Below, in pieces: positions 46 to 56,108 of a DNA stretch of 64,000 nt (position 1 is its first letter; each line of letters begins with the position of its first letter). A model generated the notes under the pieces. It did not search any database. It had not been told where the DNA came from and saw only the letters and a list, made by a program, of their open reading frames with translations. Origin of the DNA: Deltaproteobacteria bacterium (lineage in GTDB: Bacteria > Bdellovibrionota_B > Oligoflexia > Oligoflexales > Bog-1112); the NCBI GenBank assembly GCA_947475005.1, contig CANJLI010000005.1, positions 5,858 to 69,857 on the forward strand, in the 5' to 3' direction. Made by a program: the position numbers and the translations under genes.

Positions 46-2511
46 ATGATAAAGGACATTCTCATTATGCAAACCTACGTTGTCTTTTTATTTCTCCTCC
101 TTAGCACAAGCCTTCATGCTTTCATTCCTAAAGAAGAGCTGAAAAACCTGAATCTCACTACGGACGATGATCTTAACCCCTTAAACGGGATACCTTGGGC
201 AGAAGGAATTCTCGAAAATTACGGCGAGCTAGCGGAGTATGAGGACCCTGTTCGTCAGCTCGTCCTCCTTCTTTTTCATCGCACGGGAACTTTTGATCCA
301 TCTACGCGCAATCACTTCGCCAAGGATGCAACTCCACGTGAGATTGGCGAGCTCATGGGGCAAATGAAATCCGGGCAATTTAAAGAAAAAGGCTCTAAAG
401 GTGATATAGGGAGTGCTCTTAAAGCTTTAAAAGTCAATAACATTTATAATCCTCTAGCCTACAGAGTCCTGAGCACCTTGCTTTATTACAAGGCACCCTC
501 ACGCGAAGATTATAAATATTTCTATGAGGGCCTTCAAGAGACTTACCCAAAAGGGATAGACATACCTAAAGACTGGAGGGCCTGGCTTGAAGAAAAATTT
601 ACCGCTGAAGTAGGCAGAGCCCCAAATCCTCCTGATATAGATAAGGACTATGATGCCTATTTATTTTGGGTTTTGTCTAGAAGATCTGAAGCACCGCCCC
701 TTCAGCTTCAAGGAACTTCTAAAAGCAAGGCTGGGGCTTTTGCCGATTGCGGGGAAACCTCTTTACGTAATTTTCTAAAACTTATTTTAGATCATAATGG
801 TGAGTACAATGTGAAAGTTCTTGAAGAACTTGGCGCAGATAGTGAGCTGCTCGCCTTTTTTACAGAATTTAAAACGAGAGCCGATCAAGAGAATGTTGCC
901 GCAAGAGATGCTTGGTCTAACCTCACGGTGGGCCACCCAGAAGTTCGTTATGTAAAGGATAAATACGAATTAAACGCTGGCGCTGACAATATGCTAACTC
1001 TCTTGAAAAGACTTCTTCCTAAGCTGAACGATGCAAAGGATTGGGAAAGCACTTTTAGATTCATCGAAGAAGCTAGAAAGAAATCTGGACTTGGGGATTT
1101 TAATTTAACGGAAGTAAAATTAGCGAACCATCTTGGCGACTTGATTTTCTCTGTCGCTAACTTAGGTAGATTTGTTTGGCACTTTCAAAGTGGGCATTTT
1201 TATATCGCACCTCTTCCTGCTGAAACACTAGGAGAATACCCGTTTGCAGAGAGAGAAGATAAGCGATCTAAAGACGCGGCTATCTTCTATCCGATGAGCG
1301 CCACCCAAGAGGGAGATAGGTTCCTTTATACAACTCTGAGAAATAACGAAAATATTGAAAAGCTAATAGAAGAGGCGAAGAGGCGAAGAGGCGAAGAAGA
1401 CCTACCTCTAAGTGCAGCAGTGGGTTTATTGAACCGTCTTTCGACTGAAGATGCAAGGCGAAGGATATTTCCTACCGTTGTGGATACATTTACCTTGAAA
1501 AGACTTCTCGAAGATAAGCATTTAACTCTATATAAAGAGCATCTCTTTGGCCTTATAAAGACAGGTAGATTTGGACCAGCTCAAATTTTAGGTGCAAATA
1601 GCCGATTTATAGAAAAATTTGGTTTCTACTTGCCCGGCCACGGGCCGACCATCTGTGCACTGGCCCTAAGCCCGGACGGGGGGACACTTTATTCAACCTC
1701 TTGTGATAATACCATTCGCATCTGGGATCTTAAAACCGGGCAGGCGACGAAAGTCCTCTCCGGCCACGGGGACGGAATCTATGTACCGGTCCTAAGCCCG
1801 GACGGGGGCACACTTTATTCAGGCTCTAGTGATAATACCATTCACATCTGGGATCTTAAAACCGGGCAGGCGACGAAAGTCCTCTCCGACCACTGGGACG
1901 CCGTCATTGCACTGGCCCTAAGCCCGGACGGGGGCACACTTTATTCAGGCTCTGGTGATAAGACCATTCGCATCTGGGATCTTAAAACCGGGCAGGAGCC
2001 GAAAGTCCTCGCCGGCCACAGGGAGAGCGTCAATGCACTGGCCCTAAGCCCGCACGGGAGCACGCTTTATTCAGGCTCTATTGATGGGAGCATTCGCATC
2101 TGGGATCTTAAAAGCGGGCAGGCGCCGAAAGTCCTCTCCAGCCACTGGTCCGCCGTCTATGCACTGGCCCTAAGCCCCGACGGGAGCACGCTTTATTCAG
2201 GCTCTCGTGATAAGGCCATTCACATCTGGGATCTTAAAACCAGGCAGGCGACGAAAGTCCTCTCCGGCCACGGGGGCGATGTCTTTGCACTGGCCCTAAG
2301 CCCGGACGGGGGCACACTTTATTCAGGCTCTGATGATAGGACCATTCGCATCTGGGATCTTAAAACCGGGCAGGAGCTGAAAGTCCTCTCCGGCCACGGG
2401 GCCGCCGTCAAGGAACTGGCCCTAAGCCCGGACGGGGGCACACTTTATTCAGGCTCTTATGATAATACCATTCGCATCTGGGATCTTAAAAAAGAATTAA
2501 GGTCTCATTAA
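46..2511 (+). CDS. Secreted WD40-repeat protein: signal peptide, ~500-aa N-terminal region of unknown function, C-terminal 7-bladed WD40 propeller
   Basis: 821-aa ORF. Hydrophobic N-terminus (VVFLFLLLSTSLHA). Seven 42-aa units, each GH..(A)LALSPDGxTLYSGSxDxTIRIWDLK, the classic WD40 GH/WD signature. Confidence 0.85.
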   Translation: MIKDILIMQTYVVFLFLLLSTSLHAFIPKEELKNLNLTTDDDLNPLNGIPWAEGILENYGELAEYEDPVRQLVLLLFHRTGTFDPSTRNHFAKDATPREIGELMGQMKSGQFKEKGSKGDIGSALKALKVNNIYNPLAYRVLSTLLYYKAPSREDYKYFYEGLQETYPKGIDIPKDWRAWLEEKFTAEVGRAPNPPDIDKDYDAYLFWVLSRRSEAPPLQLQGTSKSKAGAFADCGETSLRNFLKLILDHNGEYNVKVLEELGADSELLAFFTEFKTRADQENVAARDAWSNLTVGHPEVRYVKDKYELNAGADNMLTLLKRLLPKLNDAKDWESTFRFIEEARKKSGLGDFNLTEVKLANHLGDLIFSVANLGRFVWHFQSGHFYIAPLPAETLGEYPFAEREDKRSKDAAIFYPMSATQEGDRFLYTTLRNNENIEKLIEEAKRRRGEEDLPLSAAVGLLNRLSTEDARRRIFPTVVDTFTLKRLLEDKHLTLYKEHLFGLIKTGRFGPAQILGANSRFIEKFGFYLPGHGPTICALALSPDGGTLYSTSCDNTIRIWDLKTGQATKVLSGHGDGIYVPVLSPDGGTLYSGSSDNTIHIWDLKTGQATKVLSDHWDAVIALALSPDGGTLYSGSGDKTIRIWDLKTGQEPKVLAGHRESVNALALSPHGSTLYSGSIDGSIRIWDLKSGQAPKVLSSHWSAVYALALSPDGSTLYSGSRDKAIHIWDLKTRQATKVLSGHGGDVFALALSPDGGTLYSGSDDRTIRIWDLKTGQELKVLSGHGAAVKELALSPDGGTLYSGSYDNTIRIWDLKKELRSH
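1636..2487. repeat. Seven tandem 126-bp units (one per WD40 blade) with long identical nucleotide runs
   Basis: Strings such as ctggccctaagcccggacgggggcacactttattcaggctct and accattcgcatctggga tcttaaaaccgggcagg recur every 126 bp. Units start at 1636, 1762 ... 2392. Confidence 0.9.
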
Positions 2512-2754: not shown

Positions 2755-2786
2755 AGAGGCAAACTGGAAAAGAACACTGATTTTTC
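2755..2786. repeat. Imperfect inverted copy of the 35-bp repeat
   Basis: The reverse complement reads gaaaaatcagtgttcttttccagtttgcctct, against gaaaaaacagcatttttttccagtttgcctct. Confidence 0.7.
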
Positions 2787-2803
2787 GAGCAATCTATCTG
2801 TAT

Positions 2804-2894
2804 CCGTCATCCCCAGCGCCTGAAGGGCGCGTCGGGGATCCCCCTCGATCGTGGGAGATGCCCATACGGCCGAGAGGCGGCCTGGGCATGACGG
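2804..2894. repeat. Divergent copy of the REPIN-like double-hairpin element
   Basis: ccgtcATCCCCaGCGCCtgaagGGCGCgtcGGGGATc ... GCCCAtacGGCCGagagGCGGCCTGGGCatgacgg. Same ccgtcat/atgacgg ends and same fold as the other copies, but the stem sequences differ. Confidence 0.7.
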
Positions 2895-2911
2895 ATCTTA
2901 TGCAGAACGGT

Positions 2912-2946
2912 TGAAAAAACAGCATTTTTTTCCAGTTTGCCTCTCA
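2912..2946. repeat. 35-bp direct repeat, copy 2
   Basis: Identical to positions 1-35. Lies just 3' of the convergent bestrophin-like gene. Confidence 0.9.
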
Positions 2947-15288: not shown

Positions 15289-15409
15289 CCGTCATCCCAA
15301 GGCTGCAAAGCAGCCGTATGGGATCTCAGTGTTTTTATCGAGATCCCATACGGTCCCTTCGGGACCTTGGGATGACGGACTTCTCAGATCCCATACCTTG
15401 GGATGACGG
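15289..15409. repeat. REPIN-like double-hairpin element plus a truncated extra unit
   Basis: ccgtcatcccaaggctgcaaagcagccgtatgggatc ... gatcccatacggtcccttcgggaccttgggatgacgg, then gatcccataccttgggatgacgg. Confidence 0.85.
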
Positions 15410-16666: not shown

Positions 16667-16756
16667 CCGTCATCCCAAGGTCCTGAAAGGACCGTATGGG
16701 ATCTCGATAATTTCAATGAGATCCCATACGGCTGCTGCGCAGCCTTGGGATGACGG
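16667..16756. repeat. REPIN-like double-hairpin element
   Basis: ccgtcatcccaaggtcctgaaaggaccgtatgggatc ... gatcccatacggctgctgcgcagccttgggatgacgg. Confidence 0.85.
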
Positions 16757-21153: not shown

Positions 21154-21188
21154 AAAAATCCTCTCCCTAGGTCCCCCCGATATAATTT

Positions 21189-21278
21189 CTGTCATCCCAA
21201 GGCTGCGTAGCAGCCGTATGGGATCCCTGCGTTTTTATCGAGATCCCATACGGCTGCTACGCAGCCTTGGGATGACGG
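21189..21278. repeat. REPIN-like element, near-perfect palindrome
   Basis: ctgtcatcccaaggctgcgtagcagccgtatgggatccctgcgtttttatcgagatcccatacggctgctacgcagccttgggatgacgg. Confidence 0.9.
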
Positions 21279-21286
21279 GCACTACC

Positions 21287-24038
<2,752 letters not shown>

Positions 24039-24109: not shown

Positions 24110-25105
24110 ATGATACGCATACCAATTGGATTCCTCTGGATCAGCGCTTTGGTTGTGGCTTCACAAGGGCTATTGGGTGCTACCATTGTCAGATTGAGCG
24201 AGGAGCAGCATGCGGTGCTACTGAATGCCGGGGAGACCGAGGGGTTTTCGACGGGCAAATCCGTTTGTTTTTTTGACAAACCCGAGCAACAGATCCTTTG
24301 CGGGAAAATTGTAAAAAGCACCAAAAACCACGCCTATGTGCGTGTGAAGCGGGAGGAAATCGTGAGCCTGCGCAAGGGATTGTCCGCCCAGCTTCAACCA
24401 GACCCCCCGCATAAATGGGAGCTCACAGGTGCGTATACCCCATGGATCGCCACCCCTTTCACCGTCACAGTACCTAACTATTTACCCCCGGCAAAAGAGG
24501 CAACACAGACCAACACCCTATGGAAAGCCAACAAAAAACTCTCCTCTAGCTTTACTTCGGGAGCCCTGGAACTCCTGCTGCCCATGATTCATGTACGCGC
24601 AGGCCTTCGCTACCTGCAATTCCCCACTGTGAGCACTGTACAATCCAACTATGATCCGGCAAATACCTCCTCCTACGTAGAACGTTCTTTTTCCGGATCT
24701 GCACTCGGCCTTTTTGGCGCCTATGACTTGATACGCAAAGGGAGGTTTTCCCTGGGAGCCGGCCTTGATGTGAACCAAAGTACCGCGACAATGAAGGCGC
24801 AAGCCAAGAACGATACGAAGACCCTCGACAAAACCATTTTCTCGATCAAATCGGTCCTTACTGTTGTTTCTTTATATATTCCAGTCCGATACAACCTCCC
24901 CTTATTTGATTCCTCCTTTACCCTAGGACTTGGGGGAGATTTCCTCTTGCCTCTATTTGCCATGGGTACCCCCCAAGTTACGGAAGCCGACAGCGTAAAT
25001 GGTAGCAAAGTGCCGGACGCCATCGCCGATGCCCAGGGTGTATTGGCTCATAAGAAGAACAGTTTTGGTTTGGCTATTGTCGTGGGGCTAACCTATTGGC
25101 GGTAG
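24110..25105 (+). CDS. Probable outer-membrane beta-barrel protein (start trimmed to MIRIPIGF)
   Basis: Signal peptide IGFLWISALVVASQG. Alternating-hydrophobicity strands and aromatic C-terminus ...GLAIVVGLTYWR. Confidence 0.55.
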   Translation: MIRIPIGFLWISALVVASQGLLGATIVRLSEEQHAVLLNAGETEGFSTGKSVCFFDKPEQQILCGKIVKSTKNHAYVRVKREEIVSLRKGLSAQLQPDPPHKWELTGAYTPWIATPFTVTVPNYLPPAKEATQTNTLWKANKKLSSSFTSGALELLLPMIHVRAGLRYLQFPTVSTVQSNYDPANTSSYVERSFSGSALGLFGAYDLIRKGRFSLGAGLDVNQSTATMKAQAKNDTKTLDKTIFSIKSVLTVVSLYIPVRYNLPLFDSSFTLGLGGDFLLPLFAMGTPQVTEADSVNGSKVPDAIADAQGVLAHKKNSFGLAIVVGLTYWR

Positions 25106-25154
25106 ATGGGGGGGTAGGGATGAGATCGTGGACACCCACCGAAATCCCCCCACT

Positions 25155-25373
25155 CCGTCATCCCAAGGTCCCGGAGGGACCGTATGGGATCTCTGCTCCG
25201 TCATCCCAAGGTCCCGGAGGGACCGTATGGGATCTCTGCTCCGTCATCCCAAGGTCCCGGAGGGACCGTATGGGATCTCTGCGTTTTTATCGAGATCCCA
25301 TACGGCTGCTACGCAGCCTTGGGATGACGGAGCAGAGATCCCATACGGCTGCTACGCAGCCTTGGGATGACGG
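25155..25373. repeat. Cluster of five hairpin units: three direct (43-bp period), a central spacer, then two inverted
   Basis: 3 x ccgtcatcccaaggtcccggagggaccgtatgggatctctgct, then gcgtttttatcga, then 2 x gatcccatacggctgctacgcagccttgggatgacgg. Confidence 0.9.
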
Positions 25374-25430
25374 ACGCTGCTCGGAGGGGGGAGGGATGGG
25401 GATGACGGAATGGAATGAGGGATGACAGTT

Positions 25431-49381: not shown

Positions 49382-49502
49382 CCGTCATCCAAAGGCTGCA
49401 AAGTACCGAACGACCGTCATCCCAAGGTCCCGAAGGGACCGTATGGGATCCCTACGTTTTTATTGAGATCCCATACGGCTGCTTTGCAGCCTTGGGATGA
49501 CG
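49382..49502. repeat. Partial hairpin unit plus a full REPIN-like pair
   Basis: ccgtcatccaaaggctgcaaagtaccg, then ccgtcatcccaaggtcccgaagggaccgtatgggatc ... gatcccatacggctgctttgcagccttgggatgacg. Confidence 0.85.
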
Positions 49503-50716: not shown

Positions 50717-51498
50717 GTCTACAAAGAAGATTGTTTTGGGGTGGGCTCCTAATTTTCGGGGCTACCGCCTATCAAGTCTGGAAGTTGACACCCCCTGTCT
50801 CCCTCCTGCAAGGCCCCTTTGTCGAGGTCGTGCGGTGGGAACCTCCCCTCGGCCGTCAGGTGGTCCAAGTAGGACCCGGCTCTGCCCAGTGGGTTAAGAG
50901 CGAAGAAATCTCCAAGCATACCCTTTATGCCATCTTGGTAGCAGAAGATGCACGCTTCTATGAGCATGGGGCATTGGATTGGCATGAGCTTTTCCTCAGT
51001 TTCCGTAAGAACTGGCAAGAAGGCAAGATCGTACGCGGAGGTTCTACCATCACTCAACAGGTGGTACGCATAGTCTTCCTCTCCCAAGAAAAGAGCTACT
51101 TCCGTAAATTTCGAGAGGCCCTCGGGGCCTTTGCCCTCGAGCGAATTCTCACCAAAGACGAAATTTTGGGCTGGTATCTCAATCTGGTAGAGTTTGGAAA
51201 AGGCACCTACGGAATTGCAGAGGCTGCCAAACGCCATTTCCATACCACCCCGGATTTATTGACTGTTTCGGAATCTATCCACCTGGCACTGGTACTCCCG
51301 AGCCCCCATCTGTGGTCAAAAGGCTTGCGCAAAAAAGACCTGACTGAGTTTGGACAGCGACGTTTCCAGCTCATTCTCGATCGCATGAAAGAAAACAACT
51401 ACATCACCATGGAGCAATGGCGGAATGTACGGGCGACGGGGAATTTTGGCTCTCCTCTGGAGGGCGTAGAACCCGCTTCTGAGTCTGTTTTTGAGTAG
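50713..51498 (+). CDS. mtgA: Monofunctional peptidoglycan glycosyltransferase (GT51)
   Basis: EDARFYEHGALDW and RGGSTITQQ motifs. N-terminal anchor. Confidence 0.9.
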   Translation: MSLQRRLFWGGLLIFGATAYQVWKLTPPVSLLQGPFVEVVRWEPPLGRQVVQVGPGSAQWVKSEEISKHTLYAILVAEDARFYEHGALDWHELFLSFRKNWQEGKIVRGGSTITQQVVRIVFLSQEKSYFRKFREALGAFALERILTKDEILGWYLNLVEFGKGTYGIAEAAKRHFHTTPDLLTVSESIHLALVLPSPHLWSKGLRKKDLTEFGQRRFQLILDRMKENNYITMEQWRNVRATGNFGSPLEGVEPASESVFE

Positions 51499-51505
51499 CC
51501 CCCCT

Positions 51506-51595
51506 CCGTCATCCCAAGGCTGCGTAGCAGCCGTATGGGATCTCGATAAAAACGCAGGGATCCCATACGGCCCCTTCGGGACCTTGGGATGACGG
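51506..51595. repeat. REPIN-like double-hairpin element
   Basis: ccgtcatcccaaggctgcgtagcagccgtatgggatc ... gatcccatacggccccttcgggaccttgggatgacgg. Begins 8 nt after the mtgA stop. Confidence 0.85.
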
Positions 51596-51697
51596 CAGCA
51601 GCACGCAGAAAAAAAGTTTCTGCTCCGCGGATACCATGATAGAGTGCCCCCCTAAGAAACTGTCTTAAAAAGACCCCCATCCCCTCAAGAGCTACGC

Positions 51698-55820: not shown

Positions 55821-55915
55821 CAAAGGGGATACTCACCAGTCCAGCGGGGACACCCGATGCGAATGTCCCGAATGGCGCTTCCTTAAGCGTACGATTTGCC
55901 TAACTCCTTGGAAAT

Positions 55916-56005
55916 CCGTCATCCCAAGGTCCCGAAGGGACCGTATGGGATCCCTGCGTTTTTATCGAGATCCCATACGGCTGCTGCGCAGCCTTGGGAT
56001 GACGG
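55916..56005. repeat. REPIN-like double-hairpin element
   Basis: ccgtcatcccaaggtcccgaagggaccgtatgggatccctgcgtttttatcgagatcccatacggctgctgcgcagccttgggatgacgg. Confidence 0.9.
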
Positions 56006-56108
56006 ATGGGTTGCCATCTTGAATGTAAGCAAAAGATGACAATTCCTTTCTTAAGGAAGCGGCATTCTCGGGTGTCCCCTCCTTTATCCGAGGAGGATGC
56101 CACCTCTC

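Follow-up and report, generated by a model that had tools for sequence, protein, structure and literature searches.

A nested-stem variant of CGTC-tagged hairpin repeats in an Oligoflexales genome and its likely relation to Ssn-type nuclease cassettes

A 64-kb stretch of the draft genome of a Deltaproteobacteria bacterium of the order Oligoflexales (assembly GCA_947475005.1, contig CANJLI010000005.1; contig C5:5858-69857, here called the window) carries inverted pairs of tagged hairpins at eight loci, one of which, at 25.2 kb, is a cluster of five hairpin units. What kind of element is this, and which enzyme, if any, spread it? The initial annotation of the window likened it to REPINs, inverted doublets of repetitive extragenic palindromic (REP) sequences that are mobilized by REP-associated tyrosine transposases (RAYTs), and took the family to be undescribed. 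We find that the element is a nested-stem variant of the published CGTC-tagged REPs and Ssn-related motifs (SRMs), and that its interrupted 13-bp stem lies outside both published definitions. It is probably best explained as a lineage-specific, structurally extended CGTC-tagged repeat whose dimer is the gene-less form of a unit-ssn-unit nuclease cassette.

The host draft genome (G000) comprises 2.15 Mb in 68 contigs; it is 93% complete, and many of its contigs break within the CGTC repeats. We compared it with a same-genus genome (G001, the sister species), with a third lineage recovered from public metagenome data (L230, which shares 85.6% identity with G001 and, at the DNA level, 71% identity with G000), and, more widely, with 40 relatives and 185,579 species representative genomes. 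Within the window, the tag-plus-stem word CCGTCATCCCA (≤1 mismatch) matched 21 times, relative to 1.0 ± 0.95 matches in shuffled sequences, and 0 of 100 shuffles attained 21 matches. These matches fall at the eight loci that the initial annotation had listed. The genome-wide count that it proposed yielded 556 tag words, 340 complete units, and 262 loci, which together cover ~21 kb, or roughly 1% of the assembly. Since more than 20 contig ends stop inside the repeats or in tandem arrays of truncated units, this fraction is a lower bound. These data confirm that the repeats are real and very abundant.

Each unit (~38 nt) had been predicted to fold on its own as a double hairpin. The computed fold of the single-stranded DNA (ssDNA) supports independent folding but gives one interrupted hairpin instead, in which the outer stem ATCCCA/TGGGAT is followed by a bulge (A versus GTA) and then by an inner stem of 6 bp that closes a 3-nt loop, with the 5' CCGTC and the 3' tail left unpaired. 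Type A units (inner hairpin GGCTGC-GTA-GCAGCC) and type B units (GGTCCC-GAA-GGGACC) have this same outer stem, type C units combine GCGCCT-GAA-GGGCGC with ATCCCC/GGGGAT, and type D units combine GGCCG-CCTC-GGCC (from the unit sequence) with ATGCCCA/TGGGCAT. When 71 distinct 36-nt units from the host and the sister species were aligned, the tag, the first five outer pairs (including the stem-initial A-T and T-A pairs), and the 3' C were unchanged in 71/71 units, the sixth outer pair alternated between C-G and A-T, and compensatory changes were present at 5/6 inner pairs. Paired cells made up 94% of this alignment, relative to 79% in shuffles and 28 to 50% when partners were slid; the units are related, which inflates these cell counts, and the occurrence of at least five independent complementary inner stems is the firmer evidence. 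This covariation backs the hairpin structure. Thus, it is the sequence that is conserved in the outer part of the unit, whereas in the inner part conservation is confined to the structure.

The units are mainly arranged head to head. There are 98 clean two-unit loci of this kind, 81 of them of the A/B type, and inclusion of A/B pairs in larger clusters brings the head-to-head A/B pairs to 117. In 92 of these 117 pairs, a B unit lies on the T-run side of the spacer and an A unit opposite (the remainder being AA in 13, BB in 7, and AB in 5), so the inner stems that had been described as interchangeable alleles are the two halves of one directional 90-bp element. In its canonical form, this dimer reads B unit, CCTGCGTTTTTATCGA, A unit, and the 83 canonical 90-mers share a mean identity of 95.5%. 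As ssDNA, the B-A heterodimer is predicted to fold with two small side hairpins (-32 kcal/mol, z -9.5), whereas an A-A homodimer would make a perfect 37-bp hairpin (-50.7 kcal/mol, z -15). The preference for B-A, which spares the 37-bp hairpin, fits the published argument that heterodimers evade hairpin-removing enzymes (PMC3733652). Outside the dimer, a 20-nt module, TAGGTCCCCCGGTGTAATTT, often touches the tag on one side, with GGGCGGCGCGTCCAT or AGGGGGTGTC on the other (examples of the module lie at window 21169-21188 and at host C36:13137, C10:36269, and C2:102035); these flanking modules imply that the family is more modular than its 90-bp core. A cleavage or target site might be indicated by a preferred AATTT / CCGTC junction.

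These features closely resemble those of the CGTC-tagged REP superfamily (Di Nocera, De Gregorio & Rocco 2013, BMC Genomics 14:522; PMC3733652), which includes Neisseria dRS3 and Rickettsia RPE-4/RPE-6. As in that class, the units bear an unpaired 5' CGTC tag (invariant here, with TGTC variants in the class), a stem that starts with A-T and T-A, and a short unpaired 3' tail; they form mainly head-to-head dimers, often heterodimers with conserved spacers; and they occupy intergenic sites, chiefly tandem or convergent gaps, with no link to a tyrosine transposase. The published repeats, too, showed no association with transposase genes (PMC3733652). Unlike the published members, which have an 8- to 9-bp stem, a 4- to 5-nt loop, and a CCA tail, the present units have a stem of 6 bp, a 1/3-nt bulge, and 6 bp, a 3-nt loop, and a C(C/T)C tail, and tandem arrays are frequent here, in contrast with the rarity of clusters in the published class. 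The authors of that survey allowed that bulged members may have evaded their search (PMC3733652).

An exact-unit search had pointed the other way: the exact A/B unit had 0 matches in the 185,579 species genomes and 0 in the 40 relatives, which suggested a wholly private family, and searches for the unit sequence in the full text of papers returned chance matches only. A looser pattern of the dimer termini (CCGTCATCCCA, 55 to 80 nt, TGGGATGACGG) overturned that suggestion by finding at least 96 loci in the same species genomes. Among the matches listed, the hosts are Sphingomonas, Dyella, Luteimonas, Erythrobacter, and others, and the loci are 80- to 100-bp head-to-head dimers of a simple unit, CCGTC-ATCCCAGC-GAAA-GCTGGGAT-C.

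The second published relative is the SRM, known in Neisseria as NTS, whose partner is SsnA (Nat Commun 2025, 16:2388; PMC11893778). SsnA is a 94-amino-acid (aa), single-domain GIY-YIG nuclease that binds NTS (CGTCATTCCCGCG..GCGGGAATC) only as ssDNA; cutting depends on bases upstream of the palindrome and occurs a few nucleotides 5' of the tag, and binding depends on the C after the palindrome (PMC11893778). The ssn gene is typically flanked by the repeats, nearby motifs accompany 71% of ssn homologues, and the likeness of ssn cassettes to insertion sequences was raised as a hypothesis (PMC11893778). Our units share with NTS the tag and the start of the stem (here CGTCATCCCA..TGGGATC) as well as the conserved C past the palindrome. 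The initial annotation had named a match to a published family as something that would refute its claim of novelty; since the units carry most of the defining features of the CGTC-tagged REPs and also correspond to the SRMs, that claim largely fails. Its REPIN-like architecture (tagged hairpins, head to head, intergenic, in high copy) holds, but the RAYT link and the undescribed status do not.

Is an Ssn-type gene associated with these units? In Sphingomonas, Dyella, and a Defluviitaleaceae genome, inverted CGTC hairpins bracket small GIY-YIG genes whose products follow the pattern ..LYVGVTS..R..QH..GFT..L.VY.E......AI.REKQIK.W.R.WK..LIE..NP.W.DL, and three other genera of the host's family possess Ssn-type genes with adjoining CGTC units. 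In the sister species, where 94 matches to the pattern CGTCATCCC..GGGATC represent nested C-type units, the Ssn-type gene P0002 (93 aa) has a D unit on one side and a C unit on the other, both with the nested stem. The third lineage has the same motif-ssn-motif order (C unit, ssn, D unit), and its protein, P0123, is 88% identical to P0002. P0123 was the best match in a metagenome search for the host population's own Ssn gene, but it belongs to this third lineage, with 71% DNA identity to the host.

The position of P0002 links the cassette to the gene-less dimers. The gene sits in the spacer of a D/C dimer (CTCCTACGAT / gene / CGAGGGGG, versus CTCCCACGATCGAGGGGG in gene-less dimers), and the gene-less C/D spacer of both species, CTCC(C/T)(A/T)CGAT-CGAGGGG, consists of exactly those 10 nt that lie inside D and those 7 nt that lie inside C in the cassette, the gene and the short sequences next to it being absent. 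A comparable relation was found in Sphingomonas sp. DBB INV C78 (G043), in which head-to-head pairs of the unit CGTCACCCCGGACKTGTTCCGGGGT come in two sizes. The large class comprises 14 pairs of 397 to 403 bp (for example, C1:1217534-1217936); ssn is present in both of the pairs that were aligned, and a further nine pairs coincide with matches to GIY-YIG. The small class comprises 13 gene-less pairs of 108 to 180 bp, and 3 of the 4 that were aligned retain ~30 nt similar to the 5' end of ssn (ATGATCGAG..). Two of the GIY-YIG matches that coincide with pairs contain in-frame TGA stops. Judging from these sequences, the nuclease cassette in this strain seems to behave like a multicopy insertion sequence. 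Because of the spacer identity in this genus and the gene remnant in Sphingomonas, the gene-less dimers of two unrelated lineages appear to have arisen from the nuclease cassette by deletion. Such dimers, which equal the cassette minus its gene here or keep a gene remnant in Sphingomonas, are new relative to the published SRMs, and the alignments lend direct sequence support to the insertion sequence likeness raised in that work (PMC11893778).

In this respect the dimer stands to the unit-ssn-unit cassette as a miniature inverted-repeat transposable element (MITE) that arose by internal deletion stands to its parent insertion sequence. Unlike MITEs, the dimer lacks the usual transposase-type terminal inverted repeats and itself showed no target-site duplication, and the enzyme is a nuclease without known strand-transfer activity. 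We propose that, on ssDNA, a unit would present an unpaired CGTC, the invariant ATCCC/GGGAT, a bulge, a complementary inner stem of 6 bp that is free to vary, and the 3' C. By analogy with SsnA, an Ssn-type enzyme would bind this hairpin as ssDNA, require the tag, and cut a few bases 5' of it. The 90-bp dimer would be a non-autonomous derivative of the cassette that encodes this single-domain GIY-YIG nuclease, and copies, in the class as a whole, would multiply through the repair or recombination that the Ssn cut initiates.

Several observations weigh against this explanation. The stem and loop sizes fall outside the published CGTC ranges, and the SRM motif, HGTCWYN(0-2)YYVSBRHN(0-5)WNVSBRGN(0-2)RNCYNB, matches no A, B, C, or D unit; it has 3 matches in the host genome, relative to 11 in a reversed control, whereas NTS and the Sphingomonas unit do match it. 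The putative assignment of P0002 to the Ssn family (cd10448) is based on its 43% identity to the CGTC-hairpin-flanked Sphingomonas genes and on its gene context. We know of no Ssn protein for which transposition or copying activity has been demonstrated. Neither a PF01541 search of all six reading frames nor tblastn with five Ssn-type sequences as queries found an Ssn-type gene in the host assembly; because the assembly is incomplete and breaks at repeats, this result may reflect either loss of the gene or an assembly gap. In a synteny search for a lost ssn, the host region with the orthologue of the sister species' ssn neighbor proved to be rearranged. Nowhere in the host assembly does a gene lie between convergent A/B units, and no partner of the A/B subfamily was identified there. 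The only small GIY-YIG gene that the six-frame search detected in the host, P0001 (C3:44648-44914, 88 aa), is of a different type, UPF0213 (YhbQ-like), and matches UPF0213 structures (1ywl, 3e-17).

P0001 raises the question of whether the Ssn-type gene was truly lost and the UPF0213 protein now partners the expanded A/B subfamily. A canonical A/B dimer ends 38 nt before the P0001 ATG in the host, and a C/D dimer lies 2 nt before the ATG of its counterpart in the sister species, such that in both species a dimer of the dominant subfamily separates the upstream gene from the P0001 start; the flanks of the two dimers differ, hinting at separate insertions. P0001 is also 36% identical to the Ssn-type P0002. 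In addition, both species of the genus have an ATG within the dimer terminus GGGATGACGG that shares the reading frame of the UPF0213-type gene, and public gene calls start at this repeat ATG, giving a 103-aa protein, P0003, instead of one of 88 aa (C3:44603-44914; L109 1441-1752). This repeat-borne start is probably a repeat-induced misannotation, odd as its recurrence in both species is. Against a partnership, the P0001 orthologues of six further genomes in the family have no adjoining units, nor do the best Sphingomonas and Dyella counterparts, and the units lie on a single side of the gene. The ~60% identity of P0001 to proteins of distant bacterial phyla, together with the UPF0213 match, gives it the look of a conserved housekeeping protein rather than that of a quickly evolving element nuclease, and, with ~13% of the host's intergenic gaps containing an element, the adjacency could reflect chance or an old shared insertion. 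We therefore consider a switch to P0001 unlikely. If it were true, the partnership would provide the first function for the large UPF0213 family, that of a hairpin-specific single-strand DNA nuclease, and would demonstrate that the partner enzyme of a repeat family can change.

The transposase-based origin suggested at the outset, in which a genome-encoded RAYT-like Y1 transposase mobilizes the dimers in trans, has some points in its favor. Two intact genes for RAYT-like Y1 transposases are present in the host genome, along with one frameshifted copy and pieces at contig ends, and a tag 5' of the hairpin foot conforms to the logic of Y1 substrates. As in REPIN/RAYT systems (Bertels & Rainey 2011; Nunvar 2010; Ton-Hoang 2012), the units form inverted doublets of tagged hairpins, the doublet can form a long hairpin (the B-A and A-A folds), and hundreds of near-identical copies are present in one species only; a further parallel is an enzyme gene with copies of its own repeats on either side. 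The tag is CGTC here, however, rather than GTAG, and the enzyme flanked by units in related lineages is an Ssn-type GIY-YIG nuclease, not an HUH Y1 transposase. Moreover, our search found no RAYT gene flanked by CGTC units. Each RAYT-like gene is instead bracketed by its own, different palindromes (GAGATCGGGTCCACCTACCGAATTA..; TGAGATCGGGGACACCC..; GGGGACACTCGCATCGGGTGTCCCC), which are near-perfect, span 75 to 83 bp, and bear GGGGACAC or GGGTCCAC; one unrelated CGTC dimer lies ~190 bp from the frameshifted copy. These palindromes carry the GGGGWSAS motif, as do those at the "TIRYT" genes of Di Nocera et al. 2013 (PMC3733652), a survey that tied no CGTC family to a tyrosine transposase. Given that the flanks are other, separate repeat families, we rejected the RAYT genes as the source of the CGTC units, and direct mobilization by a RAYT appears quite improbable.

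An indirect contribution may nevertheless exist. The word GGGGACAC, which the RAYT-flanking repeats share, occurs 502 times in the genome, relative to ~66 expected (GGGGACACTCGCATCGG occurs 127 times), and it terminates a composite repeat of ~235 bp with a B-A dimer at its center. In the window, this composite (55846-56079) has inverted ends, GGGGACAC..GAATGGCGCTTCCTTAAG, and the layout GGGGACAC..GAATGGCGCTTCCTTAAG, B-A dimer, CTTAAGGAAGCGCCATTC..GTGTCCCC, a repeat within a repeat that has been amplified jointly. Genome-wide, 17 copies with the inner flanks were found in a strict search, and ~25 with a 20-nt flank. The dimers in these 17 to ~25 copies may have been moved by a RAYT as cargo; if so, the RAYT hypothesis would hold for the composite copies only, and indirectly.

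A second carrier is a 188-bp repeat (window 2756-2943) that has GAGGCAAACTGGAAAAGAA as its 19-nt terminal inverted repeats, with TCA duplicated at its two ends. Its ~30 copies in the genome always have a central C/D dimer and a 3-bp TNA (TCA/TTA) end duplication. A copy with 84% identity is present in the sister species (G001:C25:10503-10687), and the repeat resembles a miniature form derived from an IS5/Harbinger-type element. Because dimers form the center of both the 235-bp composite and the 188-bp repeat, a good part of the copy number is attributable to hitchhiking. Tandem arrays with periods of 28 to 33, 43, and 65 bp indicate local duplication as a third route. At contig ends, tandem arrays (period 27 to 33 bp) of truncated units, each consisting of the tag, the 5' half of the outer stem, the inner hairpin, and GCGCCC in place of the 3' half, symmetrically flank full dimers (host C5:1-160, C21:35021-35151, C37:1-100, C45:1-150, and C60:1-140; G001:C20:1-84). 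Alongside the proposed nuclease-initiated copying, therefore, passive carriage in two other small mobile repeats and local tandem duplication have spread the element, as the sequence itself shows.

Comparison with relatives also yielded evidence of movement. In the sister species, the orthologous counterparts of window 21155-21293 (21 bp there) and of window 51496-51686 (74 bp there), each located between conserved genes, are free of the element. The A/B sequence is confined to the host species, whereas C/D dimers are common to the sister species at 85 to 93% identity, the range that also applies to the dimer at 2804-2894. The only other assemblies found in a search for insertion polymorphism among strains (L228 and L229) are 99.99 to 100% identical to the host genome, which makes them uninformative in this respect.

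These comparisons also bear on whether the elements are mainly host-selected RNA or DNA signals (terminators, mRNA 3' stabilizers, or supercoiling sites) rather than selfish repeats. Their placement is suggestive in this regard. All eight window loci are intergenic, as the initial annotation reported, in three convergent and five tandem gaps and no divergent one; every copy is thus downstream of at least one gene, the nearest stop codon lies 8 to 104 nt away, and three loci are ≤11 nt from a stop. Genome-wide, based on crude open reading frame (ORF) calls, the elements occupy 89 tandem, 45 convergent, and 20 divergent gaps, relative to backgrounds of 1082, 299, and 314, respectively, so that convergent gaps are enriched (29% versus 18%) and divergent gaps depleted (13% versus 18.5%). 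The spacer also contains a T run. However, this run begins at least 7 nt past the stem, the orientation of canonical dimers relative to the upstream gene is random (14 same, 18 opposite), and no copy scored as an intrinsic terminator in the 7.5 kb that was scanned, which covers three elements. The random orientation and the null scan of these 7.5 kb led us to drop the intrinsic terminator reading. No Rfam family matched anywhere in the window at gathering thresholds, the orthologous sister-species sites are empty despite conserved flanking genes, and the A/B sequence occurs in one species only. Selection by the host as the main reason for the elements thus strikes us as very doubtful, and effects on neighboring genes, such as 3'-end stabilization or limits on recombination with incoming DNA, would be possible by-products of the nuclease-derived repeat proposed here rather than its reason for being.

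How, then, did the cluster at 25.2 kb arise? Its arrangement of three direct units facing two inverted ones with a 43-bp period was verified by sequence and by Tandem Repeats Finder, which reported perfect 43-bp copies, three of them at 25153-25282 and the other two at 25292-25374. The loop variant GGA occurs three times in the whole genome, each time in a B unit of this cluster. Because this variant is private to it, the cluster is one dimer with locally duplicated arms, not the product of five insertions. The initial annotation also noted that the repeats generate spurious ORFs, and the peptide ..SVIPRSRRDRMGSLRFYRDPIRLL.. is indeed present; the ORFs of 109 aa (25096-25425, + strand) and 80 aa (25128-25370, + strand) that cross the cluster are repeat artefacts, and similar repeat-encoded ORFs occur at other loci. 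The elements of the window and the RAYT-like genes of the genome are listed in Table 1. Separately, at window positions 1634-2491, a 126-bp unit is repeated 6.8 times in tandem (86% identity) within an 821-aa ORF (46-2511); these are WD40-type protein repeats and are unrelated to the CGTC elements.

Table 1. CGTC elements of the window (window coordinates) and RAYT-like genes of the host genome (contig coordinates)
Position	Feature	Context
2804..2894	C/D-subfamily head-to-head dimer; C stem ATCCCC/GGGGAT, D stem ATGCCCA/TGGGCAT	Center of 188-bp repeat 2756-2943
15289..15409	A unit, T-rich spacer, B unit (rare arm order), and one truncated extra unit	Nested between GGGGACACTCGCATCGG-type palindrome arms
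16667..16756	B-variant unit (GGTCCT/AGGACC, compensated stem change), atypical spacer, A unit	Nested in GGGGACAC-type palindrome
21189..21278	A-A homodimer, perfect 37-bp hairpin if extruded	Orthologous sister-species site ~21 bp, empty
25155..25373	Focal cluster: three direct B units (100% identical), spacer CTGCGTTTTTATCGA, two inverted A units	
25398..25408	Lone tag remnant CCGTCATCCCC	Adjoins the 25.2-kb cluster
49382..49502	Truncated A unit, then canonical B-spacer-A dimer	11 nt past stop codon
51506..51595	Canonical dimer, reversed (A, AAAAA-spacer, B)	8 nt past stop codon; sister-species site empty
55916..56005	Canonical B-spacer-A dimer	Center of ~235-bp composite repeat 55846-56079
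C4:36090-36767 (L001 1225-1902)	RAYT-like gene	Bracketed by GGGTCCACC-type palindromes
C34:10055-10888 (L002 1192-2025)	RAYT-like gene	Bracketed by GGGGACACCC-type palindromes
C3:98230-98790 (L003 1420-1979)	RAYT-like gene	Bracketed by GGGGACACTCGCATCGG-type palindromes

What is new here is the escape of these repeats from the published definitions, the support for a cassette-to-dimer origin, and their abundance in a genome in which no Ssn-type nuclease gene was found. The published SRM search scores this genome as having none, even though ~1% of its DNA consists of these repeats. Because the SRM motif misses such nested units, motif-based surveys undercount the class, and nested or bulged hairpins call for structure-aware models. 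For annotation, the repeats matter in that they break the assembly, create spurious ORFs, and give a probably false start codon to at least one real gene. Taken together, the spacer identity in the sister species, the gene remnants in Sphingomonas, and the multicopy cassettes support the view that Ssn cassettes are insertion sequence-like elements with non-autonomous derivatives.

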